Below are positions 2,351-51,327 of a stretch of DNA of 64,000 nt, one piece after another (position 1 is the first letter of the stretch; every line of letters starts with the position of its first letter). The stretch comes from Clostridia bacterium (lineage in GTDB: Bacteria > Bacillota > Clostridia > TANB77 > CAG-465). The stretch lies in the NCBI GenBank assembly GCA_030524345.1, contig JAUNGP010000006.1, forward strand, positions 15,105 through 79,104. The letters are read 5' to 3'. The notes beneath the pieces are model-generated. The model searched no databases, had not been told where the DNA came from, and saw only the letters and a list, made by a program, of their open reading frames with translations. Made by a program: the position numbers and the translations under genes.

Positions 2351-2526
2351 TTGACATAATATGAAAAAAAGTGATATAATATAAATATGAATATATAAAT
2401 TAAGTCTCTACAAATTTTAGGGAACTGGTATCCCTTTATATTGTGTAGAACTTTATTTATTTACCATTTTAGGTAGCAAAAAAATAGAAAGGACTCCCAA
2501 GTTATAAAGGGAAAAATGGTGTTATT
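2351..2526 (+). promoter_or_regulatory. promoter plus structured 5' leader, family copy 0
   Basis: TTGACA (2351) and TGnTATAAT (2375-2380). A hairpin at about 2405-2451 (TCTACAA..AGGGA-actggta-TCCCT..TTGTGTAGA) is followed by a U-rich tract. An SD-containing hairpin lies just 5' of the ATG. About 80% identical to the copies at 16.0 and 17.5 kb. Confidence 0.6.
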
Positions 2527-2751
2527 ATGAAAAAGTATGATTTCTTTGGTATGAAACAATTTCTGGTAGGAGGTAAAGCTCATCTTGACGGTGAGACAAT
2601 CATTTCACGGTATCTTATAGGAAACCATAAGATCCTCGTTGAGGACAATGACGACAGTTTTCGAGTTACCGTCGATCGTACTACCCGAGTAGTGGATTCA
2701 GAAGAAAAAGTGGAGGGAATCCTCTTAGGAATCTACCTGGTTACCTATTAA
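2527..2751 (+). CDS. small hypothetical protein (74 aa), GC-elevated, leader-controlled
   Basis: ORF directly after the conserved leader. ATG is preceded by the 4-codon uORF ATGGTGTTATTATGA. A 16-bp perfect terminator follows. Confidence 0.5.
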   Translation: MKKYDFFGMKQFLVGGKAHLDGETIISRYLIGNHKILVEDNDDSFRVTVDRTTRVVDSEEKVEGILLGIYLVTY

Positions 2752-2756
2752 AATGA

Positions 2757-2810
2757 ACACCTTTAAATGTTAGAGAAAATTTTATTTAACATTTAAAGGT
2801 GTATTTTTTG
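2757..2810 (+). terminator. rho-independent terminator
   Basis: 16-bp perfect stem (acacctttaaatgtta / taacatttaaaggtgt) followed by TTTTTTG. Confidence 0.8.
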
Positions 2811-5002: not shown

Positions 5003-5966
5003 GTATTATATTGGTATAGATATCGGTTCTATATCTACAAAAGCGGTAATGATAAATCAAGATAGAAAAATCATAGCAAGTGAATATCTTTGGACAGAAG
5101 GAAATCCCATAGAAGCTACCAAAAAAGTTATTACAAAACTGAAGGAGAAAATGCCAATAAAAAATCCTAAAATATATGGTGTTGGGACAACTGGATCAGC
5201 TAGAAACCTTGTGGGAAGTGTAGTGGGAGCAAATATCATAAAAAATGAGATTACTGCACATGCCATTGGAACATTGTCTATCTATCCTGATGTTAGGACA
5301 ATTCTTGAAATTGGTGGTCAGGATTCTAAAATTATTATATTAAATCAGGGAATTGTAGTAGATTATGCCATGAATACATTATGCGCAGCAGGCACTGGTG
5401 CATTTTTATCTTCACAATCTAAAAGGCTTGGAATTGATATTAGTGATATGGGAGATATTGCATTAAGTTCCAAAAACCCATCTAAAATAGCTGCAAGGTG
5501 TACCGTGTTTGCAGAGTCTGATCTTGTTCATAAAGCCCAAATTGGTCATAAAAAAGAAGATTTGGTTGCAGGTCTTTGTAATTCAGTAGTGAAAAACTAC
5601 TTAAATAATCTATCTAGGGGTAAAAAAATTAAAGATAGAGTTGTATTTCAAGGTGGAGTGAGCAAAAATAAAGGGGTAATAAAGGCATTTGAAAATGAGC
5701 TTGATACTCAAATATTTGTAGATGAAAATTCACATTTAATGGGAGCATTAGGAATTGCAATATTATCTCAAAAAGCAAATAAAGAAGAAAAAGAGTTAGC
5801 ATTTGATTTTAATATCCAAGATATAGATTTTAAGACACTTGGTGTAGAGTGTAAAGGTTGTAGCAATAACTGTGAAATAGTTTATATTTATAAAAATGGA
5901 AATGTGATCGATAAAATGGGCGGTAGATGTGAAAAATTCAATTTGGTTGAAGCAAAGAGTAGTTAA
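4995..5966 (+). CDS. CoA-substrate-specific enzyme activase (BadF/BadG/BcrA/BcrD ATPase family, HgdC-like)
   Basis: N-terminus YIGIDIGSISTKAVMIN (ASKHA phosphate-1 motif). CAAGTGAF motif. C-terminal Cys cluster. SD GGAGGGAG 5 nt upstream of ATG. Confidence 0.8.
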   Translation: MDKYYIGIDIGSISTKAVMINQDRKIIASEYLWTEGNPIEATKKVITKLKEKMPIKNPKIYGVGTTGSARNLVGSVVGANIIKNEITAHAIGTLSIYPDVRTILEIGGQDSKIIILNQGIVVDYAMNTLCAAGTGAFLSSQSKRLGIDISDMGDIALSSKNPSKIAARCTVFAESDLVHKAQIGHKKEDLVAGLCNSVVKNYLNNLSRGKKIKDRVVFQGGVSKNKGVIKAFENELDTQIFVDENSHLMGALGIAILSQKANKEEKELAFDFNIQDIDFKTLGVECKGCSNNCEIVYIYKNGNVIDKMGGRCEKFNLVEAKSS

Positions 5967-6159
5967 TTTATATAATATACATTATTTGTGAATTACAATA
6001 AAACACTTTCAAAAAAGAAATCTCCCTAAAATCAAGTCATGTCTTATTACTTGACACTTTCTTAGATCGTATGTTATAATAAAATTAAGAAAGAGAATAA
6101 ATACTCAATAACTATTTGAGCATGGTCTCAAAATATTATTTCAAGGGGGTGTTGCCATT

Positions 6160-8760: not shown

Positions 8761-9282
8761 ATGAAAGCTTTTTTTAAGAGTATATATGATGATGCAGAAA
8801 ATATGTTAAAGAAGGATCCAGCAGCCACTAACATTTTTTCTGTTATTTTATTATATCCAGGATTTCATGCAATCTTGATACATAGACTCACGCATCTTTT
8901 ATACCGTAAACATTTGTTCTTTATAGCTAGAGCTATCTCACAACTTACCAGATTTTTTACAGGAATTGAAATACACCCTGGAGCCAAAATTGGAAAGCGA
9001 TTATTTATTGATCATGGCATGGGAATTGTTATTGGTGAAACCGCTATTATTGGGGATGATTGCACTATATATCATCAAGTTACTTTAGGTGGAACAGGAA
9101 AAGAAGCCAAAAAGAGACATCCTACGATAGGAAATGATGTGGTGATCGGATGTGGAAGTAAAGTACTTGGAAATATAACTATTGGAAATCATGTAAAAAT
9201 CGGGGCTAATTCTGTTGTATTAAAAGATATACCAGATCATTCAACTGCAGTTGGAATACCATGTAAAATAATCAAGCGTTGA
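8761..9282 (+). CDS. cysE: serine O-acetyltransferase
   Basis: Left-handed beta-helix hexapeptide repeats ([38 protein letters not shown]). Confidence 0.85.
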
Positions 9283-9356
9283 CATAAAATGAAAGAAATG
9301 ATATAATATGCTCGTTAAAAATAATAATCTAATAAAATTTTTAAAGAGGATAAAAA

Positions 9357-9788
9357 ATGAGTTTTGGTAGTATTTTGAAAGCAGCATCTAGTAATCATGT
9401 AGAAGTAGAGGTATATGAAAAGTTAAAACCATTATTACTTCAGCTTGCAAATGAGCGGGAAAAAGGTTGTAAACTTTTGTTTTTCAATATTAGTGATCTT
9501 GTTATTGAAAAATTAAAAGAGTTGATTCGTAGTGATGATATTTTAGTCCAACAGGATATGATCATTTGGGATGAATCTGCCATTTTAAAGAAAGAGTTTC
9601 CTAAACCCTCTCCGTGTCAAAAATGTTCATTTGAAATGAGAATTGCTTGCTGTGGATGTTCGGAACAACAGGCATGGAAAGAATCCAAAGAAACGGAAAC
9701 CAAAACTGTATATGATGTAGAAAAAGAAATATCAATTACTATGAAAGATAAGGAAATCAGTATACAAATTGAAAAAAGGCGGGAATAA
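9357..9788 (+). CDS. hypothetical protein with C-terminal Cys cluster
   Basis: ORF with SD. CQKCSFEMRIACCGC motif. Confidence 0.45.
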   Translation: MSFGSILKAASSNHVEVEVYEKLKPLLLQLANEREKGCKLLFFNISDLVIEKLKELIRSDDILVQQDMIIWDESAILKKEFPKPSPCQKCSFEMRIACCGCSEQQAWKESKETETKTVYDVEKEISITMKDKEISIQIEKRRE

Positions 9789-13107: not shown

Positions 13108-13194
13108 TCTTATTTAAATATGGAATAAATGTGAAGAGTGTCGAAGTTGATTGAGACACTCTTTCACTTTATATATTTTAGGAGTTTATGGATT

Positions 13195-14943
13195 ATGAAA
13201 ATTAAGAAAAATAAAGGCAAAAAAGAAAAAATTGGTGGGATTGCTCTTAGTAATGGGATCATCCTAAAAAGTGAAAAAAGGGATAGTATTACAAAGAAAA
13301 ATAGTGATGGAAAGATAATAGTAAAGATAGATAAACATTTTATTGGTAAGAGTAAATTTAGTTTATTAGACCTACCCTTTATAAGAGGAATGTATAATAT
13401 AGTATCACAGCTGACGAGTTCCAAAGTAGATTTAAAAGAAAATGTAAAAGCAATTTGTGATGCATTCAATATCAAATATGATGAAGAAGAGTTAAATATA
13501 AAAACTCCTGTTTTAATAGGCATGATTATAATAATAGTTATATTTTTTCTTGTCATAACTCCATGTCTTATATCACTACCTTTTGGCCATTTCAAAGAAA
13601 TGGTACAAGCATTAATTCAATTTTTAATACTTGCTTTATTGCTAGTATCCTTAAGAGTGAGTAAATCATTAGTATCTATTTTAGAATATCATGGGGCAGA
13701 ACATAAAATTGTCAATGCTTATGAGAACTTAAATTTTGATGAACTAACAGTAGAAAATGTCAAAAAAGAATCTAGAATCCATAGAAGATGTGGCTCTAAC
13801 TTTATTGCTTTTTTTATACTCATTACAATACTTGAGACCTTACTGATCACAGTAGATCATATCGCTATTAAAATGTTAATACTTGCACTTCTTATCATCC
13901 CTAATATATCTATTTCTTATGAACTAGTGATGCTTCTTGGAAATCTTCCTAAATGTTTAGCATATTTATTTTATCCAATTATGGCTGTACAGTTTATGAC
14001 TACAAAAAATCCTAGCGATGATAAAATAAAACTTGCTATTTACGGAGTTTATGGGGTGTTAAAGGAGAATCTAAAGATGAGCGTATCAGAGCTTATAAAA
14101 AAATATGAGGAGGAAAATTATGACTTAATTCAAAACAAAGAGTATCAGTTACAAGATATGCTACAGGTCGTATCCTATGTAACAAAAAAGAATACAAATC
14201 ATATATACATTTATATGAATGAATATCTGTTAAGTTATAATGAGCAAATTGAGGTAATAAGACTTCTAGACCAATTATTTAAAGAAGATGTGCCACTTCA
14301 GTATATTACAAATAGAGCCTATTTTTATAACGAGGAATATATTGTGAACCATCATGTATTGATCCCAAGACAAGATACAGAAATATTAGTACAAAAAGCA
14401 ATTGAATATATTTCAAAATATGATTTAAAAAAAATGATAGATCTATGTACTGGTAGTGGATGTATTGGGATATCTATTGCTAACAATTCTGATATAGAAA
14501 AAGTAATCCTTAGTGATATCTCTAAAGAGGCATTAAGTGTAGCAAGACAAAATATTCAATTAAATAATGCAACTAAAGTAGTAGCCTACCTTTCTGATTT
14601 GTTGGAACTATATATTGATAACAAAACAGTAGTAGATATCATTGTATCAAATCCCCCTTATATCAAAACAGATGTTATCCAAACGCTTGATAAAACGGTA
14701 TTAAAAGAACCAAGACTTGCTCTTGATGGTGGCAAATCTGGGCTTGACATCTATATTAAAATATTAGATCAAGCAAAATATGTCTTAAAGGAACATGGAT
14801 ACTTAATGTTTGAAATTGGATATGATGAATTAGAAGAATTAAAACATATCATTTCAACGCATCCAGAATATGAATTGATAGAGTCAATCAAAGACTATGG
14901 AGGAAATGATAGAGTTATTATATGTCGCTTTTGCAATATTTAG
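13195..14943 (+). CDS. prmC: DUF1385 (YqhQ-like membrane) domain fused to peptide-chain-release-factor N5-glutamine methyltransferase PrmC/HemK
   Basis: The N-terminal half has TM helices and a GAEHK..NAYE motif (YqhQ/DUF1385). The C-terminal half has a SAM-MTase fold with NPPY and VLIPRQDTE motifs. Confidence 0.75.
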   Translation: MKIKKNKGKKEKIGGIALSNGIILKSEKRDSITKKNSDGKIIVKIDKHFIGKSKFSLLDLPFIRGMYNIVSQLTSSKVDLKENVKAICDAFNIKYDEEELNIKTPVLIGMIIIIVIFFLVITPCLISLPFGHFKEMVQALIQFLILALLLVSLRVSKSLVSILEYHGAEHKIVNAYENLNFDELTVENVKKESRIHRRCGSNFIAFFILITILETLLITVDHIAIKMLILALLIIPNISISYELVMLLGNLPKCLAYLFYPIMAVQFMTTKNPSDDKIKLAIYGVYGVLKENLKMSVSELIKKYEEENYDLIQNKEYQLQDMLQVVSYVTKKNTNHIYIYMNEYLLSYNEQIEVIRLLDQLFKEDVPLQYITNRAYFYNEEYIVNHHVLIPRQDTEILVQKAIEYISKYDLKKMIDLCTGSGCIGISIANNSDIEKVILSDISKEALSVARQNIQLNNATKVVAYLSDLLELYIDNKTVVDIIVSNPPYIKTDVIQTLDKTVLKEPRLALDGGKSGLDIYIKILDQAKYVLKEHGYLMFEIGYDELEELKHIISTHPEYELIESIKDYGGNDRVIICRFCNI

Positions 14944-14972
14944 AAAGCTACAGGTATTATAATCAAATTAAA

Positions 14973-15138
14973 TTGACATAACATGCAAAAAATGATATAA
15001 TATAGACATGGATAATAAATGAAGTTCTATATGATTATAAAGGACAGGTACCTTATATGAATCATGTGGAACTTTTTTTGTATCACAACAATTAATGAAA
15101 GGATTCCCGTGATAGAAAATAAGGGAAAAGGTGAACTT
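14973..15138 (+). promoter_or_regulatory. promoter plus structured 5' leader, family copy 1 (diverged)
   Basis: TTGACA (14973) and TATAAT (14996). Hairpin ATGATTAT-AAGG-acaggta-CCTT-ATGAATCAT followed by TTTTTTTG. SD hairpin TTCCC...GGGAA. Confidence 0.55.
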
Positions 15139-15936
15139 ATGCAGACAAATGTAAAACACGTAGGAAAAGGCTATGTAGAGGAAGAGTCCTTTGCTGTAAT
15201 AGGTGGTGAAAAATCTGAAACAATAGGCATCGAAAGATATGAAAATGGGATTTTATGGATCGATAAAAATTTTGGTGTCTGTGGTGCTACTATCGGACGT
15301 TGGGCAGAAATTGTCTCCGGGATGTTTGCAAAAGAGGCAAACTTTGAAAGAGAAATTCAAAGAGTATTTGGATCAAGTACTCCCCTTCATACAGTCATTT
15401 TTTATTTTAATAGGGTGAAGGTAAGTGTCAACAAAGAGCATTCTTCTCCAAAAGAGATTGTAGCTTTATGGGAAAGTAATTTTTATAAGCCAAAAAAGAA
15501 CTATCATGAGGCTGCAAATAGCTTAAAAGAGAAGCTGGAATCTATCATCTATTCTGAACTCAGTGGTATTGTAGATGTTGGCTCTATTACAAAGGAGGAT
15601 GCAACTCTAAGTAAGGATCAGCTGGATTTGCTGGAAAAATGCATTCAAAAACTGGTTACCTTAAAGAAGGCAGAAGCCATTTTCAAGTATACGGAAATGG
15701 AATTTGAAAGTGAGCTTTCAAAACAGGAATTTTATTCGATGAAGGATGCATCCACTCTTAAATTTGCAGTAAAATGGGCAAAGGCAATGCAATACTTGAT
15801 GCAAGAGCGGGATGAATCTGCAAGAGCTGTTGGACAGGAAGCAAGCAAAATGGCAGATCCTGATGTTCCTTTTTATGTCGAGGAAATCGCTAAATCCTAT
15901 TTAAAGCGATGCTGGAAATACGGCAATTCTCTGTAG
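15139..15936 (+). CDS. hypothetical protein (265 aa), GC-elevated, leader-controlled
   Basis: ORF starts at MQTNVKHVGKGY directly after the leader. About 40% GC against a genome at about 28%. Confidence 0.55.
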   Translation: MQTNVKHVGKGYVEEESFAVIGGEKSETIGIERYENGILWIDKNFGVCGATIGRWAEIVSGMFAKEANFEREIQRVFGSSTPLHTVIFYFNRVKVSVNKEHSSPKEIVALWESNFYKPKKNYHEAANSLKEKLESIIYSELSGIVDVGSITKEDATLSKDQLDLLEKCIQKLVTLKKAEAIFKYTEMEFESELSKQEFYSMKDASTLKFAVKWAKAMQYLMQERDESARAVGQEASKMADPDVPFYVEEIAKSYLKRCWKYGNSL

Positions 15937-15944
15937 GTTCTGAC

Positions 15945-15968
15945 AAAAGACTCAGCATTAATTTGCTG
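15945..15968 (+). terminator. rho-independent terminator (repeat family gac[ct]cagcattaatttgctgggtc)
   Basis: 9-bp stem followed by a T-run. The same hairpin recurs at 16549 and 18199. Confidence 0.75.
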
Positions 15969-16035
15969 GGTCTTTTAAGATATAAAAACGATTGATAAAG
16001 AGGTCTATTTTAACCAGTACTATCAGCAAGTTAAA

Positions 16036-16291
16036 TTGACATAATGTCAAGAAAGTGATATAATATAAATATGGAACATATAAATTAAGTTTCCACAAAT
16101 TTTGGGAGCTAGTATCCCTTTATATTGTGTGGAACTTTCTTTTTTTTAAAAAATACAATTTTAAGGTACTCGACATACTGAGTTAGGTGCTACAACTTAA
16201 CCTATTCTACACCTGAAAGTAGACAAGTAGCAACAAGTTTTATAGAAAGGATTCCCCACGCAGTATGATAAAGGGGAAAAATGGTGTTATT
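16036..16291 (+). promoter_or_regulatory. promoter plus structured 5' leader, family copy 2
   Basis: TTGACA (16036), 17 nt, TATAAT (16059). Hairpin TTTCCACAA..GGGA-gctagta-TCCC..TTGTGTGGAA followed by CTTTCTTTTTTTT, which is terminator/attenuator-like. A 130-nt spacer. Then the SD hairpin TTCCCC-N15-GGGGAA. Confidence 0.65.
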
Positions 16292-16537
16292 ATGAAAGAA
16301 TTAAAGGGTTTTGAAAGATTACAGGGATTTGACCATATCCTTCCTAGAGGAATTGATATTATTCAGCTGAAGGCTGGACAGGTTCTTTGGATTGATGAAG
16401 ATGGACTGTATATTGCAGAATCAGATGTCATACTTATAGTTGAACATCTAGATATTATCTATGATCCGGCTGACAGCCAACATGGCAGATTATGGTGGAA
16501 TTGTAGTGATGTTATCAAAGAAATTCCGCTGAAATAA
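16292..16537 (+). CDS. small hypothetical protein (81 aa), GC-elevated, leader-controlled
   Basis: Starts at MKELKGF. The 4-codon uORF ATGGTGTTATTATGA overlaps its ATG. Paralogous N-terminus with the 17747 ORF. Confidence 0.5.
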   Translation: MKELKGFERLQGFDHILPRGIDIIQLKAGQVLWIDEDGLYIAESDVILIVEHLDIIYDPADSQHGRLWWNCSDVIKEIPLK

Positions 16538-16548
16538 ATTTTCCATAT

Positions 16549-16573
16549 GTTCTGAAAAGGACCCAGCATTAAT
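16549..16573 (+). terminator. rho-independent terminator (repeat family)
   Basis: ggacccagcattaatttgctgggtc followed by TTATTTTTATTT. Confidence 0.8.
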
Positions 16574-16654
16574 TTGCTGGGTCTTATTTTTATTTGATAT
16601 TAGAACAAATGTTTATATATGCTACATATACCAATTTTAGTCTATATTTTTTTC

Positions 16655-16683
16655 TTGAAATACCAAATCTTATATGTTACAAT
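16655..16683 (+). promoter_or_regulatory. sigma-A-type promoter for whiA (duplicated copy at 18295)
   Basis: TTGAAA, 17 nt, TACAAT. Confidence 0.6.
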
Positions 16684-16705
16684 ATACTTAATTTGAGGTG
16701 GTAAT

Positions 16706-17446
16706 ATGTCATTTTCATCCGATGTTAAAGATGAAATATTAAAAAACTTTTCGGGAAATCAAAAAACGTGTTGTATTAAAGCTGAAAAATTTGGTGAATA
16801 CTTAACATCAGTACCATTAAAAAATATATTAGGCAATGAATTTAAAGAATATTTAGATATATCCAAACTGAAAGAATGTTGTATTAAGTCAATCTTAAAA
16901 GGCGTGTTTTTAGGTTCTGGCTGTATTGTCGATCCAATGTTAGATTATCATTTTGAAGTAATATTTAAAAATAAAGCTTGCGGAGAGTATATTTTGAATT
17001 TGCTATCAGTACTTGATTTTACTCCTAAAATGATCAAGAGAAAAAAGCAAAATGTGGTATATTTTAAAGAATCAGAACAAATATCTCTTTTTTTGAGTAT
17101 TCTTGGAGCAAATAATGCTGTTTTAAAATTTGAGCAAATACGAGTTGAAAAAGAAGTTAAAAATAGTATCAATAGAACTACTAACTGTGAAACAGCCAAT
17201 TTATCTAAAACAATTAATTCAGCTGTAAAGCAAATAGAGGCGATTAAAAAACTAAAAGAACATGGTAAGTTTGCCTCTTTAAATGATAAATTAAAATATA
17301 CTGCAAATTTACGTTTAAAGTATCCAACAGAAAGCTTAGATTATATAGCATCTAAGACGGCAAAAGATGAAAAAAATAAAATTAGCAAATCTGGTTTAAA
17401 GCATAGATTAGATAAACTGATTCAACTTGCTGCAGAAATAAAATAA
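16706..17446 (+). CDS. whiA: DNA-binding protein WhiA, N-terminally shortened (246 aa)
   Basis: NCETANLSKTI and ISKSGLKHRLDKL (C-terminal HTH) motifs. One LAGLIDADG-like segment (FLGSGCIVDP...YHFEVIF). About 65 aa of the first LAGLIDADG-like domain are absent relative to the Bacillus-type WhiA I recall. Confidence 0.8.
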   Translation: MSFSSDVKDEILKNFSGNQKTCCIKAEKFGEYLTSVPLKNILGNEFKEYLDISKLKECCIKSILKGVFLGSGCIVDPMLDYHFEVIFKNKACGEYILNLLSVLDFTPKMIKRKKQNVVYFKESEQISLFLSILGANNAVLKFEQIRVEKEVKNSINRTTNCETANLSKTINSAVKQIEAIKKLKEHGKFASLNDKLKYTANLRLKYPTESLDYIASKTAKDEKNKISKSGLKHRLDKLIQLAAEIK

Positions 17447-17492
17447 CATTTTTGGCATAATTAGTACTTATAATATCTATAAGCAAGTTAAA

Positions 17493-17746
17493 TTGACATA
17501 ATGTTAAGAAAGTGATATAATATAAATATGGAACATATAAATTAAGTTTCCACAAATTTTGGGAGCTAGTATCCCTTTATATTGTGTGGAACTTTCTTTT
17601 TTTTAAAAAATACAATTTTAAGGTACTCGACATACTGAGTTAGGTGCTACAACTTAACCTATTCTACACCTGAAAGTAGACAAGTAGCAACAAGTTTTAT
17701 AGAAAGGATTCCCCACAGTATGATAAAGGGGAAAAATGGTGTTATT
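17493..17746 (+). promoter_or_regulatory. promoter plus structured 5' leader, family copy 3
   Basis: Nearly identical to copy 2 over about 270 nt. Confidence 0.65.
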
Positions 17747-18172
17747 ATGAAAGAATTAAGACAGTTTTACTTTGGAGATCTTAATAGTGTATCTGTTGCT
17801 CCTGAAGAGGTAACCGTGATCCAGCTAAAAGCCGGTGAATCCATTGAGGTCCATAGGGAACTCTATACAGCACCGATTGATCAAACTTTAGTTGTCGACC
17901 GGTTACGGATTCGGAAAGGCAAAGCTAGTTGTACGATGATTCGTCAGATTATTGACGGATTTCAGGTCCAGCAGTTTCCGGTTCGACCGGATCGCTTCTT
18001 GAGAAGAGTGGCAAGTAACAAAGGATTTAAGACCATAATTGTTCCGGGCGGAATCACTCCGCTGACTAGATACGGCTATGTACCTGTTCCGGATTTCAAC
18101 ATGAATGGTACTACTTACTTCCTGTTTCCCTATAGCTTTTTTAAGAAGCTGACAGCACCGAAAGAAGCTTGA
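17747..18172 (+). CDS. hypothetical protein (141 aa), GC-elevated, leader-controlled
   Basis: Starts at MKELRQF. The N-terminal ~30 aa are paralogous to the 16292 ORF (shared IQLKAG); the rest is unrelated. Confidence 0.5.
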   Translation: MKELRQFYFGDLNSVSVAPEEVTVIQLKAGESIEVHRELYTAPIDQTLVVDRLRIRKGKASCTMIRQIIDGFQVQQFPVRPDRFLRRVASNKGFKTIIVPGGITPLTRYGYVPVPDFNMNGTTYFLFPYSFFKKLTAPKEA

Positions 18173-18198
18173 TCCCACACCACCATATGTTCTGAAAA

Positions 18199-18223
18199 AG
18201 GACCCAGCATTAATTTGCTGGGT
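18199..18223 (+). terminator. rho-independent terminator (repeat family)
   Basis: Identical to the hairpin at 16549. Confidence 0.8.
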
Positions 18224-18294
18224 CTTATTTTTATTTGATATTAGAACAAATGTTTATATATGCTACATATACCAATTTTAGTCTATATTTTTTC

Positions 18295-18323
18295 TTGAAA
18301 TACCAAATCTTATATGTTACAAT
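18295..18323 (+). promoter_or_regulatory. sigma-A-type promoter for hemW (duplicate of 16655)
   Basis: TTGAAA, 17 nt, TACAAT, lying within a 160-nt segment identical to 16540-16700. Confidence 0.6.
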
Positions 18324-18360
18324 ATACTTAGTTTAGAGATACATATATAGGAGGATTATC

Positions 18361-19539
18361 ATGAAACAAGATCTTGGTATATATATCCATATACCTTTTT
18401 GTATAAGTAAATGTTATTATTGCAATTTTGTATCCTATGTAAATCAGGATAATATGATAGAAGAATATATCAATGCAGTCTGCATGGAAATACTACAAAA
18501 TGCAGAAATACTAAGTGAATATAATATAGCAACTGTATATTTTGGTGGCGGTACTCCCTCTTATATAGATTCAAAATATATTAAACAAATAATGGATACT
18601 TTAAACTTATTTAAAAAAGGAAATGACTTTTTAGAAGTAACACTTGAAGTAAATCCTTGTAGTGTTACTTTAGATAAGCTAATTCAGTATAGAAATTGTG
18701 GAATCAATAGAATTAGTATTGGGCTTCAATCCACACATGATGACATTTTAAAAACAATTGGCAGAAAACACACACTAAATGACTTTCATAATACATTAAA
18801 ATATTGTAAAGAGGCAGGTTTTGACAATCTTTCTGTAGATATTATATATCCTTTACCAAATCTTGATCTAAATCGTTTTTCTGAAACTTTAAATTATCTG
18901 ATGAAGGTAAAAGAAGAATACAATATTAAACATATATCAATATATAATTTAGAGATCCATAAAGGTAGTAAAATTGAGTTTTTGTTAAATGAAGGATATG
19001 TGAGCTTGGTAGACGAAGAAACTGAGTATCAAATGAAAGAATTAATTGAATCAAAGCTGAAAGAAAATGGTTTCTATCCATATGAGATTTCTAATTTTTG
19101 TGTAAAAGGTTTTGAGTCTAAACACAATATGAATTATTGGAATCAGGGAATATATCTTGGCTTTGGAGTTTGTTCATCTAGTTTCTTTGGAAGTGTAAGA
19201 TATAAAAATACTGATAGTATAAAGGAATATATAAAAGATATAAAGTCAAACATTAGTCCTATTGCAGAAAAAGAAAGTCTTGACTTACTAGATTTGATGA
19301 AAGAGTTTATAATACTAAAATTAAGACTGAAAAATGGTTTTTCTACAAATGAATTTAAAAAATTTGGAAAAGATATATTTGATATCTTCTCAGAAGAATT
19401 ACAAGAATTAAAAGAAAATCAACTAATTGATATCCGAAAAATAGAAGGAAATTTTGAAGCAAAAACTAAAAATTATAATATAGCCCTGACAAAAAGAGGT
19501 TGTGAAGTAGCAAATGTTGTATGGGAGAAATTTGTATAG
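18361..19539 (+). CDS. hemW: radical SAM family heme chaperone HemW / oxygen-independent coproporphyrinogen-III-oxidase-like protein
   Basis: CxxxCxxC radical-SAM motif (CISKCYYCNF) near the N-terminus. HemN-like length and C-terminal domain. Confidence 0.8.
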   Translation: MKQDLGIYIHIPFCISKCYYCNFVSYVNQDNMIEEYINAVCMEILQNAEILSEYNIATVYFGGGTPSYIDSKYIKQIMDTLNLFKKGNDFLEVTLEVNPCSVTLDKLIQYRNCGINRISIGLQSTHDDILKTIGRKHTLNDFHNTLKYCKEAGFDNLSVDIIYPLPNLDLNRFSETLNYLMKVKEEYNIKHISIYNLEIHKGSKIEFLLNEGYVSLVDEETEYQMKELIESKLKENGFYPYEISNFCVKGFESKHNMNYWNQGIYLGFGVCSSSFFGSVRYKNTDSIKEYIKDIKSNISPIAEKESLDLLDLMKEFIILKLRLKNGFSTNEFKKFGKDIFDIFSEELQELKENQLIDIRKIEGNFEAKTKNYNIALTKRGCEVANVVWEKFV

Positions 19540-19550
19540 GAGGAAATTTT

Positions 19551-20090
19551 ATGATTTCTAATGTCGATAGTAGTGCTAAGTATAATATAAGAGTGAATTG
19601 TAAATTAGAAGAATTGATAAAAGAGATTTCAGATGCTTGCTATATAAATATGAAATCTTATTATATGATCAATATCTATATGATACCAGAGATAGTAGAT
19701 ATTTTAAAAATAACAGATCTATCTTCTTTGGAGTCATATGTTATCATTCAAGACTTAAATGGTCTAGAAAAACAAATCATACATAAAAATGGTAATGTTA
19801 TAAAATCTAGCACAATTAATGATATTTTAGCAGTGAAGGAATTATTATTAAAATTAAATTATAATGAGCTTATGTATATGAACTATGATATATATTGCTA
19901 TCAAAAAAATAATAGTTTCATCACAATAAAAAACATATTAAAACAAGGTATATTTATTGAAGGTAACGAAGAGATGTTATCTTTATTAAAAGAGAAAAAT
20001 ATACCATATGACAGTTCTAATTTATGTGTTGATAATGAAAAAAATGCTTTAGAGAATGTCCAGAAAAATCTAAAAAACAATATGAAATAA
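19551..20090 (+). CDS. hypothetical protein
   Basis: ORF between hemW and polA. No motif recognised. Confidence 0.4.
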   Translation: MISNVDSSAKYNIRVNCKLEELIKEISDACYINMKSYYMINIYMIPEIVDILKITDLSSLESYVIIQDLNGLEKQIIHKNGNVIKSSTINDILAVKELLLKLNYNELMYMNYDIYCYQKNNSFITIKNILKQGIFIEGNEEMLSLLKEKNIPYDSSNLCVDNEKNALENVQKNLKNNMK

Positions 20091-26532: not shown

Positions 26533-26699
26533 AAAAGCATGCCGAACTAGGGAAAAACCTTAGTTTTCATATATCAACCTCTTATGATCGCCTCTATAGT
26601 AATGTAGAGGCATCTATTTTTTTGTTCAAAACTAAGTTGACATAAATTTGTAGTTGTGATATAATAAGATTATATTTAATAAAGGAGGGTAATTTAACT

Positions 26700-27164
26700 A
26701 TGATTACCGAAAAACAATATCCCTATCGTGTACTTCAATACGAATGGGAACGGCTTTATCCTTGGGTAAACAAAGCATTTTCCGAGCTGGATCATTTATT
26801 TTATCTTAGCTCTACGGAGTATGAGGTTTTCTTTGACAAATTCGGCGTTCATATCTGCCAAAGAGGAAAAGATTCTCTCTTTTCGTTTAACAGTAATCTT
26901 TTTCCCACTATCAAGCAGCGTCATGATGAGATCTGTAAGCAAATTGGTCCCTATGTACCAGAAACTATGAGTGCAAAGATAAAGCTTATCTGTAAACATT
27001 TTGGAGACATCAAAGATATTCCGGACTTGGAAAGTATTTGGCTTAAGGGAGAAAAGGATTTTGTTATTGAGTATCTGTATTCAATAGTAGATGATAATAA
27101 GAAGAAGCAGTCACAGAAAAAGTGTGATTTAATGAATCATTTACTGGATATGGTTGAGTATTAA
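26700..27164 (+). CDS. hypothetical protein, GC-elevated
   Basis: Own promoter (TTGACA / TGTGATATAAT) and SD AAAGGAGGG. Confidence 0.5.
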   Translation: MITEKQYPYRVLQYEWERLYPWVNKAFSELDHLFYLSSTEYEVFFDKFGVHICQRGKDSLFSFNSNLFPTIKQRHDEICKQIGPYVPETMSAKIKLICKHFGDIKDIPDLESIWLKGEKDFVIEYLYSIVDDNKKKQSQKKCDLMNHLLDMVEY

Positions 27165-27265
27165 TGTTTCTTAATTTTATAAAGACGCAGGTAATGAATG
27201 TTACTTGCGTTTTTATTCACATAGCTATTAACTTCTGTTATAATAAGAAAACATAGATAGGTAAG

Positions 27266-27795: not shown

Positions 27796-28117
27796 ACTAG
27801 TGTTAGTATTTATCATATATTGTTAAGATATTTGAGCTCCATATTTGCGTTTTAAAGGATTTTTATTTTTTTGCCAAGTACTTTTACGTTTGAAATGAAT
27901 GTTTCCATATCTTCTTTATACTATATGATTACTATTTTGTATATTACTATTCCATTCCTATATTATATGTTATAGTTTTATACGATTTCGCAAAACGTTG
28001 TCTTATATTTACTTTTTTAATCTTCTAATAATTTTTCTGCCATGTAACTATATACCTTAACAAATAAAAATGGCTTAAAATCAAAATATGAGCGTCGTTT
28101 TTAAGGAGGTTTTTTTG

Positions 28118-29077
28118 ATGTATGACGATATACCAGATTATATGAAAGAATTCTTATCATATATGCAAAATATAAAAAATAGATCTGCAAATACAATACG
28201 AGAATATTATTATGATTTACGCGATGTGTTTCGATTCTTGAAATTATATAAGTCTAAAGTAAAAATTAAAGATATAACACCAGAACTAATAAATGAAACC
28301 GATATATCAGATTTAGATATAGAATTTTTAAGAAAAGTCGATTTAGCAGATTTATATGAATATTTGAATTTTATTTCAAACATTCGTTCTGACAAAGCTA
28401 CAACTAGAGCCCGTAAAGTTGCTGCATTAAAATCATTTTTTAATTTCATGACTTTCAAGCAAAAAGTGTTAGATAAAAATCCAACTGTAGAACTAGAAAC
28501 ACCAAAGCTTTCTAAAAGATTACCAAAATATCTAACATTAGATGAAAGCAAGGCTCTCCTCCACTCCATCGAGGGAAAACATGAAAAAAGAGATACTTGT
28601 ATTATTACGTTATTTTTAAACTGTGGCTTACGTCTATCTGAGCTTGTATCTATCAATATGAAAGACATGAAAGATAATGTTTTAACGATTGTGGGTAAAG
28701 GTGATAAAGAGCGTTCTGTATACTTAAATAATGCCTGCCAGAAGGCAATTTCAGAATATATTGCTGTACGCCCTAAGGATGTTAAAGACCATGAAGCTTT
28801 ATTTATAAGTGAGAGGGGAACAAGAATAGGAAGAAGGACAATTGAAATGATGGTGAAAAAGTATATTACTTTGGCAGGATTAGATCCTAAAAAGTATTCT
28901 CCTCATAAATTACGACATACAGCTGCAACACTTATGCACAAATATGGTAATGTAGATATTCGTTCTTTACAACAAATACTTGGACATGAAAGCATATCTA
29001 CAACTGAAATATATACCCATATTGACAGTGAGCAAGTAAAAGAAGCATTAGAGAGTAATCCATTAAATGATATGTAA
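28118..29077 (+). CDS. tyrosine recombinase, XerC/XerD family (phage-integrase fold)
   Basis: C-terminal HKLRHTAATLMH...LGHESISTTEIYTH (R-H-R-Y catalytic set). N-terminal core-binding-domain motifs. Confidence 0.85.
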   Translation: MYDDIPDYMKEFLSYMQNIKNRSANTIREYYYDLRDVFRFLKLYKSKVKIKDITPELINETDISDLDIEFLRKVDLADLYEYLNFISNIRSDKATTRARKVAALKSFFNFMTFKQKVLDKNPTVELETPKLSKRLPKYLTLDESKALLHSIEGKHEKRDTCIITLFLNCGLRLSELVSINMKDMKDNVLTIVGKGDKERSVYLNNACQKAISEYIAVRPKDVKDHEALFISERGTRIGRRTIEMMVKKYITLAGLDPKKYSPHKLRHTAATLMHKYGNVDIRSLQQILGHESISTTEIYTHIDSEQVKEALESNPLNDM

Positions 29078-50294: not shown

Positions 50295-50477
50295 ATAAAT
50301 CCTCCTTTAAAAAAACTATATTTCTATTAAAAATATATGTATTTCACATATTATATAATTTATATGAAATTAATGCAATAGTAATCCCCCATTTTTTGAT
50401 AAATTTTCTAATTTATGATATAATAATAGTAGTAATATTTTTTATATCTATAAAATAATTTTTAAGGAGGAACGACT

Positions 50478-50678
50478 ATGTTCAAAAAAATGGTGAAAGA
50501 TGTAAAAAGCGTAAGGAGACTGATTGAAGTGAAAAAGGCAGCTGGTTTTACTGTTGGCAACAAAAAGATGATCAACGGCGGTCATACGCTACTGATCAAT
50601 TTGAAAGCTCCTGACGGTCACTGTGACGAACAAGTCTTAAGACACGGATTCAATCCGTTATTGGCTATGTTTGTCTAA
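50478..50678 (+). CDS. small hypothetical protein (66 aa), GC-elevated, strongly signalled
   Basis: TTGATA, 17 nt, TATAAT promoter. AAGGAGG SD. Terminator ggcgaccaactggtcgcc followed by a T-run. Confidence 0.55.
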   Translation: MFKKMVKDVKSVRRLIEVKKAAGFTVGNKKMINGGHTLLINLKAPDGHCDEQVLRHGFNPLLAMFV

Positions 50679-50684
50679 ACATCA

Positions 50685-50712
50685 AAACGGCGACCAACTG
50701 GTCGCCCTTATT
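50685..50712 (+). terminator. rho-independent terminator
   Basis: GC-rich 8-bp stem ggcgacca/tggtcgcc followed by CTTATTTTTTTATTTT. Confidence 0.85.
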
Positions 50713-50715
50713 TTT

Positions 50716-51327
50716 TTATTTTATTTTGACATTATTTTTCTTTTCATAATCTCCTTTTAATTTATATGCCTCATCTAACATACTCTTAGCAAACTCATTT
50801 AATTTTGCTTTATCCTCAGCAATTTCCTTTGTAACATATACTGGTTTTCCATAAATCACATATACCTTAGAAAATAGCCTAGCATTTTTTGTAAGATATA
50901 CTGGTATAATTGGTACATTTGCTTTATATGCAATATATGCAGCTCCAACTTTGGCAATACCTTTTTCTTTATCCTTTTTGATTCTTTTTCCCTCAGGAAA
51001 AATTAAAAGTTTTCTTTTTTCTCCCTCACTAAATATATTAATAGCATGCATAACACTTTTGACGTCTTTCTCTCCCCTACGAATTGGAAAAACATGGCAC
51101 TTTCTAAATAAATATCCAAAAAATTTATATTTAAAGAGTTCAGCTTTTGCCATAATCCATAAATTATCAGTTTTTGCATATATCCATAAGGGTTCTAGCG
51201 TATTGGAATGATTTGGACATATTAAACATTTATCAAGATTTTCCTCTGCCTCTTTATTGACATACCTTACTCTATATAAAAAATGGCATACCACAATATT
51301 AATAATGAATTTTACAAATTTAATCAT
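50716..51327 (-). CDS. plsC: 1-acyl-sn-glycerol-3-phosphate acyltransferase family protein
   Basis: ICPNHSNTLEP (HxxxxD/E acyltransferase box) and FPEGKR motif. Overlaps cmk by 4 nt. Confidence 0.75.
   Translation of the reverse strand: MIKFVKFIINIVVCHFLYRVRYVNKEAEENLDKCLICPNHSNTLEPLWIYAKTDNLWIMAKAELFKYKFFGYLFRKCHVFPIRRGEKDVKSVMHAINIFSEGEKRKLLIFPEGKRIKKDKEKGIAKVGAAYIAYKANVPIIPVYLTKNARLFSKVYVIYGKPVYVTKEIAEDKAKLNEFAKSMLDEAYKLKGDYEKKNNVKIK

Follow-up and report, generated by a model that had tools for sequence, protein, structure and literature searches.

We examined a stretch of 64,000 nucleotides (hereafter, the window) on a single 88-kb contig of a metagenome-assembled genome (MAG) of a Clostridia bacterium with the locus-tag prefix Q4D02. 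The window contains the chromosomal genes prmC, whiA, hemW and polA, and between them lie three small single-gene units, which we refer to as cassettes A, B and C; a related unit, cassette D, is found elsewhere in the window (Table 1). Each cassette has one open reading frame (ORF), its cargo, preceded by a predicted promoter, a leader hairpin with a U-tract and a ribosome-binding leader. In cassettes B and C, the sequences on either side of the cargo (the 5' and 3' shells) are nearly identical, and the cargo differs. This layout of constant flanks around variable cargo had been called cassette-like in an earlier reading of the sequence by itself (the sequence-only reading), and our analysis supports that description.

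Table 1. Features of the window discussed in the text, in order of position. ORF lengths are in amino acids (aa).
Feature	Positions	Strand	Description
Cassette D	2351..2800	+	After rny; same promoter-hairpin module and ribosome-binding leader, different terminator
Cargo D	2527-2751		74 aa, GC-rich
Further single-gene unit 5	9278-9788	+	ORF of 143 aa
DUF1385-prmC fusion	13138-14943		DUF1385 and PrmC methyltransferase fused in one 601-aa ORF
Cassette A, whole	14973-15976		Directly after prmC
Cassette A promoter	14973..15001	+	TTGACA-17 nt-TATAAT with TG extension; in the three-member promoter pattern
Cassette A leader hairpin and U-tract	15021..15082	+	Terminator-like or attenuator; minimum free energy (MFE) -26.9 kcal/mol, z -5.7
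Cargo A	15139..15936	+	265 aa, NCBI Q4D02_04060; C-terminal Tad4-like domain
Cassette A terminator hairpin	15947..15976	+	Diverged copy of the common hairpin
Cassette B 5' shell	16017..16304	+	Promoter 16036-16064, hairpin and U-tract 16087-16149, spacer of ~85 nt, leader, first 4-5 codons
Cargo B	16292..16537	+	81 aa; N-terminal-domain-only member of the cargo C family
Cassette B 3' shell	16545..16697	+	Bidirectional intrinsic terminator 16558-16585, spacer, promoter TTGAAA-17-TACAAT 16655-16683 upstream of whiA
whiA	16706..17446	+	246 aa, single copy, between cassettes B and C; Pfam HTH_WhiA and LAGLIDADG_WhiA
Cassette C 5' shell	17474..17759	+	Promoter 17493-17521, hairpin and U-tract 17544-17606, spacer, ribosome-binding leader, first codons
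Cargo C	17747..18172	+	141 aa, NCBI Q4D02_04075; full-length member of an uncharacterised mobile-element-associated family
Cassette C 3' shell	18186..18337	+	Terminator 18199-18226, spacer, native hemW promoter 18295-18323
hemW-like radical-SAM gene	18361..19539	+	Host core gene 3' of cassette C; Pfam Radical_SAM and HemN_C
ORF between hemW and polA	19521-20090		189 aa
Further single-gene unit 1	26636-27215	+	ORF of 154 aa
Xer-type tyrosine recombinase	28088-29077		~10 kb from the cassettes
Further single-gene unit 2	38340-37900	-	ORF of 109 aa
Further single-gene unit 4	50416-50720	+	ORF of 66 aa
Further single-gene unit 3	57480-57040	-	ORF of 113 aa

We compared the two copies of the shell with a repeat finder and by global alignment. 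In the 5' block, 283 of 289 aligned columns are identical, the differences including two mismatches and a 2-nt indel at 16259-16260; in the 3' block, 149 of 155 columns are identical. Measured in 30-nt bins, identity is approximately 1.0 throughout both shells and 0.27-0.63 in the cargo; taken as a whole, the cargo DNA is 30-50% identical. The sequence-only reading had reported the near identity of both pairs of blocks, but it extended the 3' block to 18350, whereas the block ends at 18337, beyond which the copies diverge into the locus-specific ribosome-binding sites of whiA and hemW. It also placed about 12 codons inside the 5' block, which holds for a longer reading of the two ORFs (90 aa and 150 aa); the annotated ORFs of 81 aa and 141 aa have 4-5 codons there. 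The core of the common hairpin, CAGCATTAATTTGCTGGGTC, occurs three times against an expected 0.01, and the cassette promoter pattern three times against an expected 0. These counts are so far above expectation that chance does not explain the repeat.

Comparison with related genomes shows that the cassettes are additional DNA within an older operon. The flanking genes, encoding L31, DUF1385-PrmC, WhiA, HemW and PolA, are in conserved chromosomal synteny, and in the relatives this place in the operon is taken by whiA orthologs of 58-89% identity. Genome L001, the closest GTDB representative by PolA (PolA 61%, WhiA 58%), has exactly this gene order; its whiA overlaps the end of prmC, and a 166-aa gene on the minus strand precedes hemW. 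In L087 (WhiA 80%) the operon is compact, with a gap of 15 nt between prmC and whiA and of 106 nt between whiA and hemW. In L093 (WhiA 86%) the first gap contains a ParE module and two small ORFs, and the second a HIT gene. The sister species (WhiA 89%) is represented by two sets of records. L071-L080 have a 249-nt prmC-whiA spacer with an empty module, consisting of a promoter, a hairpin and a T-run (nhmmer E ~6e-22, L071 being among the four profile-building sequences); farther on come a less strong promoter and the ribosome-binding site of whiA. L081-L086 have a 215-nt spacer with a plain terminator and no module. Genes for a 172-aa protein and a PHP protein lie between whiA and hemW in both sets, in the second where the contig reaches. 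The window itself has cassettes A and B in the first gap and cassette C in the second.

Because the relatives differ in content there, both gaps flanking whiA are recurrent insertion sites, and the promoter-hairpin module, present in L071-L080 and absent in L081-L086, is an indel polymorphism. The sequence-only reading had named, as the outcome that would point to a one-off duplication, relatives with a single unduplicated locus and no variable cargo; this is not what we see, as related genomes differ in accessory content in precisely these gaps. The accessory genes of the relatives have a host-like GC content at third codon positions (GC3) of 0.12-0.18. Shell and foreign cargo together occur only in this genome among those compared.

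The cargo of all four cassettes departs from the composition of its surroundings. GC3 is 0.33 in cargo A, 0.27 in B, 0.41 in C and 0.39 in D, against 0.17-0.22 in prmC, whiA, hemW and polA. Overall GC is 36% in cargo B and 43% in cargo C, and that of the window is 29.4%; the sequence-only reading had given about 40% for both ORFs and about 28% for the genome. We considered whether such GC-rich islands could be structured RNAs, and rejected this explanation on account of the long ORFs, their proper ribosome-binding sites and homologs at the protein level.

The bodies of the two ORFs had been described as unrelated, which our searches refute. Cargo B and cargo C are 37% identical over 41 aa (residues 15-55; BLASTP E 1e-6), and a family hidden Markov model built without either window protein matches the 81-aa cargo B at profile positions 22-74 (E 1.6e-7). 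Because this independent profile matches there, cargo B is a short member of the family with the N-terminal half only. An exhaustive phmmer search found 26 remote homologs of cargo C, of ~150 aa and 30-47% identity, with the family motifs LIVDRL, CTxIRQ and VPGGIxPLT..VAVPDFxMSGT. We read the genomic context of family members in an Eisenbergiella prophage (L067-L070) and at two further loci (L091 and L092). The Eisenbergiella homolog lies on the opposite strand and adjoins the endolysin, holin and XkdX genes, a classical position for a phage moron, in a prophage that also holds an Acb2/Tad1-type gene. A second member is found in the leading region of an integrative and conjugative element (ICE) with ArdA, ParB-N, MazEF and Fic genes, and a third in a phage early region, 3' of a repressor/Cro-like pair. 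Cargo C has no match in Pfam, NCBIfam, PHROG or PADLOC, and cargo B none in PHROG, PADLOC or NCBIfam. An AlphaFold model of cargo C, computed from a 23-sequence alignment, has a predicted local distance difference test score (pLDDT) of 94.7 and a predicted template modelling score of 0.86, and no Foldseek match in BFVD or PDB at E below 0.1. This is an unannotated ~150-aa family of mobile elements of gut Firmicutes and a candidate for counter-defence.

The cargo of cassette A is of a different kind. Residues 204-265 match Pfam family PF25186, Tad4, with an E-value of 1.1e-6 and 29.3 bits, the cut-off being 25. Phages use Tad4 to inhibit type I Thoeris, which it does by binding the TIR domain of ThsB (PMC13402655). 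The likeness lies in the C-terminal 62 residues, which exceed the Pfam gathering score; cargo A differs in being a 265-aa chromosomal gene product whose Tad4-like activity is a prediction. Its N-terminal part of ~200 aa is unrelated to Tad4, and no further homolog of cargo A was found among 5.8 billion proteins. It has a weak PHROG match and none in PADLOC or NCBIfam, a PDB sequence search returned chance matches only, and a single-sequence AlphaFold model was unusable (pLDDT 41.5).

The promoter TTGAAA-17-TACAAT in both 3' shells, which the sequence-only reading had placed in the identical 3' blocks, is the ancestral promoter of hemW and not imported cassette DNA: it matches the hemW promoter of the compact-operon relative L087 at 43 of 46 positions. 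The hemW promoters of the sister species and L093 agree with it at 35/46 and 33/46, the promoter upstream of whiA in the sister species at only 32/46. It is therefore native hemW DNA, of which a copy now lies before whiA. The end of the repeat coincides with the start of the whiA-specific ribosome-binding site TTTGAGGTG, a site also present in the sister species. Such an end is the signature of homologous recombination or gene conversion between promoters that were already similar. That the genes downstream of the two shells differ, as had been reported, is borne out by Pfam, which identifies WhiA after cassette B and a HemW-like radical-SAM protein after cassette C.

In a promoter scan, the sequences at 14973, 16036 and 17493 scored as promoters of the sigma-A/sigma-70 type with 12/12 consensus positions plus TG, and those at 16655 and 18295 with 10/12 plus TG. 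A terminator scan predicted strong terminators at 16558-16585 and 18199-18226, with stems of 9-11 bp and then a T-run. Each strong promoter is followed, after approximately 20 nt, by a long AU-rich hairpin with its U-tract. For cassette A, none of 200 shuffled sequences folds equally well, and in individual folds the hairpin is retained in all copies despite differing arms, three predicted pairs staying paired with both sides changed (among only four distinct sequences). The promoter-hairpin module is present in four copies in the window (A, B, C and D) and in one in the sister species, where the empty module directly after prmC occupies the position orthologous to the cassette A promoter. The cassette A module matches the module profile at nhmmer E 4.6e-25, its own copy being among the profile-building sequences. 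Thus the shell, seen earlier as a two-copy element, has diverged promoter-hairpin modules also at 14970-15086 and 2349-2462 and a third terminator copy at 15947-15976. The module of cassette D is 86% identical to those of B and C over 50 nt. All four cassettes share the ribosome-binding leader GAAAGGAYTCCC..GGGRAAAA(T)GGTG, which in cassette B reads GGATTCCCC..GGGGAAAAATGGTG. Rfam has no match at gathering thresholds in the whole window, and only sub-threshold chance hits at 14900-18400 with E up to 10.

Several smaller features of the leader were also seen. In the leader hairpin, the 3' arm (UCCCUUUAUA) shows complementarity with the ribosome-binding leader, the matching segments being UAUAAAGGGA in D, AUAAAGGG in B and C, and CCUUAU/AUAAGG in A (16110-16135 against 16255-16285, 2425-2445 against 2505-2520, and 15050-15060 against 15118-15126). 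MFE folds of the full 5' untranslated regions of B and C pair these two elements. Just 3' of the U-tract, D has ACCAUUUU, and B and C have ACAAUUUU, a second segment complementary to AAAAUGGU, which lies at the Shine-Dalgarno site. These complementarities suggest translational control through sequestration of the Shine-Dalgarno site by the leader; duplex energies computed across cassettes show no clear specificity. A four-codon upstream ORF, ATGGTGTTATTATGA (MVLL-stop), is found at 16281-16295, 17736-17750 and 2516-2530; its stop overlaps the main start (ATGA) in B, C and D, and it is absent from A. The 85-nt spacer between the U-tract and the ribosome-binding leader (16150-16235 and 17607-17692) is present in B and C only, not in A or D, and has no match in Rfam or in any locus that we fetched. 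Both 3' shells contain the 15-mer AGAACAAATGTTTAT (16603-16617 and 18244-18258), which the sister species has, inverted, in the spacer between prmC and whiA (L071, ~5903-5917); this hints at a small inversion or a putative orientation-independent binding site.

We consider it about 60% probable that A, B and C are three self-contained single-gene units in a compact whiA operon, and that the shells of B and C recently recombined with each other. The cassettes are best read as moron-like or PeSL-like (see below), a putative chromosomal counterpart of phage morons in a bacterial operon. Relative to other genomes they are insertions, in two gaps of the ancestral compact prmC-whiA-hemW-polA operon of an AT-rich, uncultured Clostridia host. 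In the transcript, the leader hairpin and U-tract would act as a leaky terminator or attenuator, and the leader common to the cassettes may be able to sequester the Shine-Dalgarno site. The strong bidirectional terminators would isolate whiA and hemW from upstream transcription; each terminator is followed by a copy of the hemW promoter, which would restart the housekeeping gene. The arrangement would be tolerated because the hemW-type promoters make up for the terminators: in the ancestor, whiA and hemW were transcribed together with prmC, and without promoters of this kind the terminators would leave both genes silent. The near identity of the shells would be due to intrachromosomal homologous recombination (copying or gene conversion). 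Its left arm would be the promoter-hairpin module and its right arm the terminator together with the hemW-type promoter, and it would have halted at the point where homology between the divergent, paralogous cargo genes ends. Recent recombination or gene conversion had been proposed before, and the abrupt loss of identity at the cargo edges supports it. A role of the cargo in counter-defence or host modulation is likely, because this type of cargo otherwise occurs in phages and conjugative elements.

A number of observations weigh against this interpretation. The leader hairpin could stop most transcripts, in which case the module would be chiefly a small-RNA gene. Cassette A, although adjacent, is only ~78% identical to B in promoter-proximal sequence, and because its shell has diverged, conversion does not homogenise all copies. 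Identical flanks around different cargo would need two separate conversion tracts. The Tad4 match of cargo A is partial, covering 63 of 113 profile positions (24-86). The locus is known from a single MAG contig, and exact look-up of WhiA and cargo C gave no second genome of the same species. We found no donor bearing the shell: viral, genome and metagenome collections, scanned for exact patterns (the leader, the ribosome-binding leader and the promoter-start region), gave zero matches. These scans are weak evidence, because the metagenome scan missed the promoter-start pattern that is present in L075 at 5783-5811 (JGI 3300006217). Searches of phage and plasmid collections with tblastn and blastn were likewise empty, and the locus has no similarity to phage records.

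Two phage systems resemble the cassettes most closely. Morons of the HK97/HK022 type are DNA that is extra relative to related genomes, with their own promoter and terminator and a deviant GC content (PMC3594210). Likewise, the units described here are extra with respect to L087 and L001, in which prmC and whiA are adjacent or overlapping, and to the sister species, which has only a 215-249-nt spacer; at the sequence level each has a single ORF with its own predicted promoter and factor-independent terminator; their GC3 is off that of their neighbours; and for cargo C the homolog in Eisenbergiella adjoins lysis genes, at a moron site of a prophage. They differ from morons in lying between chromosomal housekeeping genes rather than in a phage or prophage, and in having a common leader and shell and a duplicated host promoter that would rescue the next gene. 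In the promoter-early stem-loop (PeSL) cassettes of T4-type phages, recombination between modules leads to insertion, deletion, replacement and mini-circles (PMC2839356, PMC4122927). As in PeSLs, a strong sigma-70-type promoter and a stem-loop terminator are repeated between genes and lie beside ORFans, in plastic regions that separate core genes, and the transcriptional insulation of each unit would be kept. Indels or replacements between close relatives that end in the motifs would be a further likeness; here the module is found in one set of sister-species records and missing from the other, and the identity breakpoints of B and C fall at the shell edges. The differences are that this is a host bacterial chromosome and not a hyperplastic region of a T4-type phage, that one arm is a native host promoter, and that the stem-loop is part of the transcript, being placed 3' of the promoter, and has an AU-rich sequence where that of PeSLs is GGGG..CCCC.

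Other known systems share single traits with the locus. Integration hot spots resemble it in that the same two gaps hold different accessory genes in each related species, but the accessory genes of the relatives are host-like in composition and have no common shell. Gene conversion between dispersed repeats likewise produces near-identical flanks that stop abruptly at heterologous DNA. Integron cassettes have constant boundaries, variable cargo and a hairpin element at the 3' end of the ORF. However, no integron integrase was found among the scanned ORFs, whiA splits the array, each cassette has its own promoter, and where the integron attC has extrahelical bases, the terminator stem of these hairpins is 9 bp long and perfect. 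The sole recombinase among the scanned ORFs of the window (about seven, including the two largest, were left out of the scan) is of the Xer type; its best matches are XerC and XerD at 235 bits (XerC top, below the equivalog cut-off), and it scores 88 bits with the integron integrase model, whose cut-off is 265. We therefore rejected an integron, given the Xer-like recombinase, the interruption of the array by whiA and the separate promoters.

Of the competing explanations, the one that survives best is active exchange of the PeSL type, in which portable arms are common to this lineage and its phages or mobile elements and cargo is swapped by double crossover or through mini-circles. The identical shells would then reflect recent import, with no internal conversion. 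We regard this as unlikely, yet deserving serious consideration. The architecture fits published PeSLs, in which core genes are separated by ORFans with a strong sigma-70-like promoter and terminator stem-loop (PMC2839356). In addition, 64 kb contain at least four copies of the module, some sister-species strains have it and others do not, the cargo has a foreign composition and belongs to mobile-element types, and the fusions at the ribosome-binding site and start codon are precise. Such import has to contend with the lack of any phage, plasmid or metagenome sequence bearing the shell (in scans that were weak), with a 3' arm that is native hemW-promoter DNA, and with the fact that the only recombinase among the scanned ORFs is Xer-like and 10 kb away.

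An error of assembly was also weighed, since the exact repeats are longer than typical short-read k-mers, the sequence is a MAG contig and an empty module is known in the sister species. The assembler could have mis-threaded the 150-290-bp repeats, swapping cargo or adding cassettes from a co-resident mobile element. This is improbable because the junctions are unique: a 5' shell directly adjoins the end of whiA, and the native ribosome-binding sites that follow the two 3' shells are different ones. In addition, an empty shell of the B/C type would have a ribosome-binding site and a start codon but lack an ORF, and cassettes A and D, with diverged shells and unique flanks, are not products of repeat threading.

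Purifying selection on a common cis-regulatory leader, which would make the cassettes one regulon with no recent recombination, would account for the retention of the hairpin, U-tract and ribosome-binding leader in four cassettes with different cargo, for some compensatory changes, and for the predicted complementarity of leader and Shine-Dalgarno site. It would not yield 98-100% identity over ~290 and ~150 nt, including the 85-nt spacer and the spacer after the terminator. The leaders of A and D have drifted to 75-86% identity, and Rfam has no match, so we give selection on its own very little credence. Finally, a plain tandem segmental duplication of ~1.45 kb with later divergence of the coding part, the event that the sequence-only reading had named, fits direct repeats spaced 1457 and 1641 nt apart but is excluded, for practical purposes, by the single-copy whiA and by synteny, hemW after the second shell being the ancestral neighbour of whiA in the order prmC-whiA-hemW-polA; cargo proteins ~37% identical beside flanks 98-99% identical, and spacings that are unequal by 184 nt, are further points against it.

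We also offer a broader and more doubtful suggestion: that in an uncultured gut Clostridia lineage the portable promoter-stem-loop module and the duplicated host promoters form a chromosomal platform for the capture of counter-defence genes from phages and conjugative elements, with essential genes kept expressed. If so, the shell would mark new anti-defence or immune-modulating proteins, among them the Tad4-like fusion, the novel-fold B/C family and the 74-aa protein of cassette D. Three consequences already follow if our main interpretation, that of moron-like cassettes with recently recombined shells, is right. Because a Tad4-like domain and a phage, ICE and prophage family are among the cargo, other ORFans linked to the shell would be candidate counter-defence or host-modulating proteins. 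Insulated gene addition in the style of phages, as in morons and PeSLs, would also work inside a bacterial housekeeping operon, and the duplicated host promoter would be a built-in repair that keeps downstream essential genes expressed. The direct repeats would, in addition, make whiA a predicted target of recombinational loss or excision in this lineage; its deletion or amplification by way of these repeats, as proposed in the sequence-only reading, is plausible.

Two genes of the host operon have further features. WhiA in this clade is a short form of 239-250 aa in which Pfam detects only the LAGLIDADG-like and HTH domains, and the DUF1385-PrmC fusion is present in all relatives examined (571-588 aa). 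The 189-aa ORF between hemW and polA has counterparts at the same place in relatives (177-183 aa) and is absent from L001; its sole match is a sub-threshold one to Pfam T4 Spackle (E 0.025).

Besides cassette D, whose 74-aa protein has no Pfam or NCBIfam match, the window contains the five further single-gene units of Table 1. These have an extended -10 consensus promoter (TGTGATATAAT or similar) and a short leader, without the leader hairpin. Their ORFs have a GC3 of 0.24-0.45, somewhat to clearly raised, and no Pfam or NCBIfam match; an own terminator was seen in units 1 to 3, those for which the downstream sequence was read. Of the GC-elevated units other than A to D, those that we labelled E, F and G have only the promoter type in common with the shell. 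Foreign-looking ORFan units appear to be unusually dense in this genome. A motif, TATATAATATAYATTATTTGYGAATTACA.., lies 3' of the terminators of cassette D and unit E (2819-2879, and 37890-37830 on the minus strand) and of a gene ending at 5966 (5969-6029). It is a further native intergenic segment recurring beside cassettes and may be an operator or promoter; the copy after 5966 has an orthologous position in L001, at 1450-1504.

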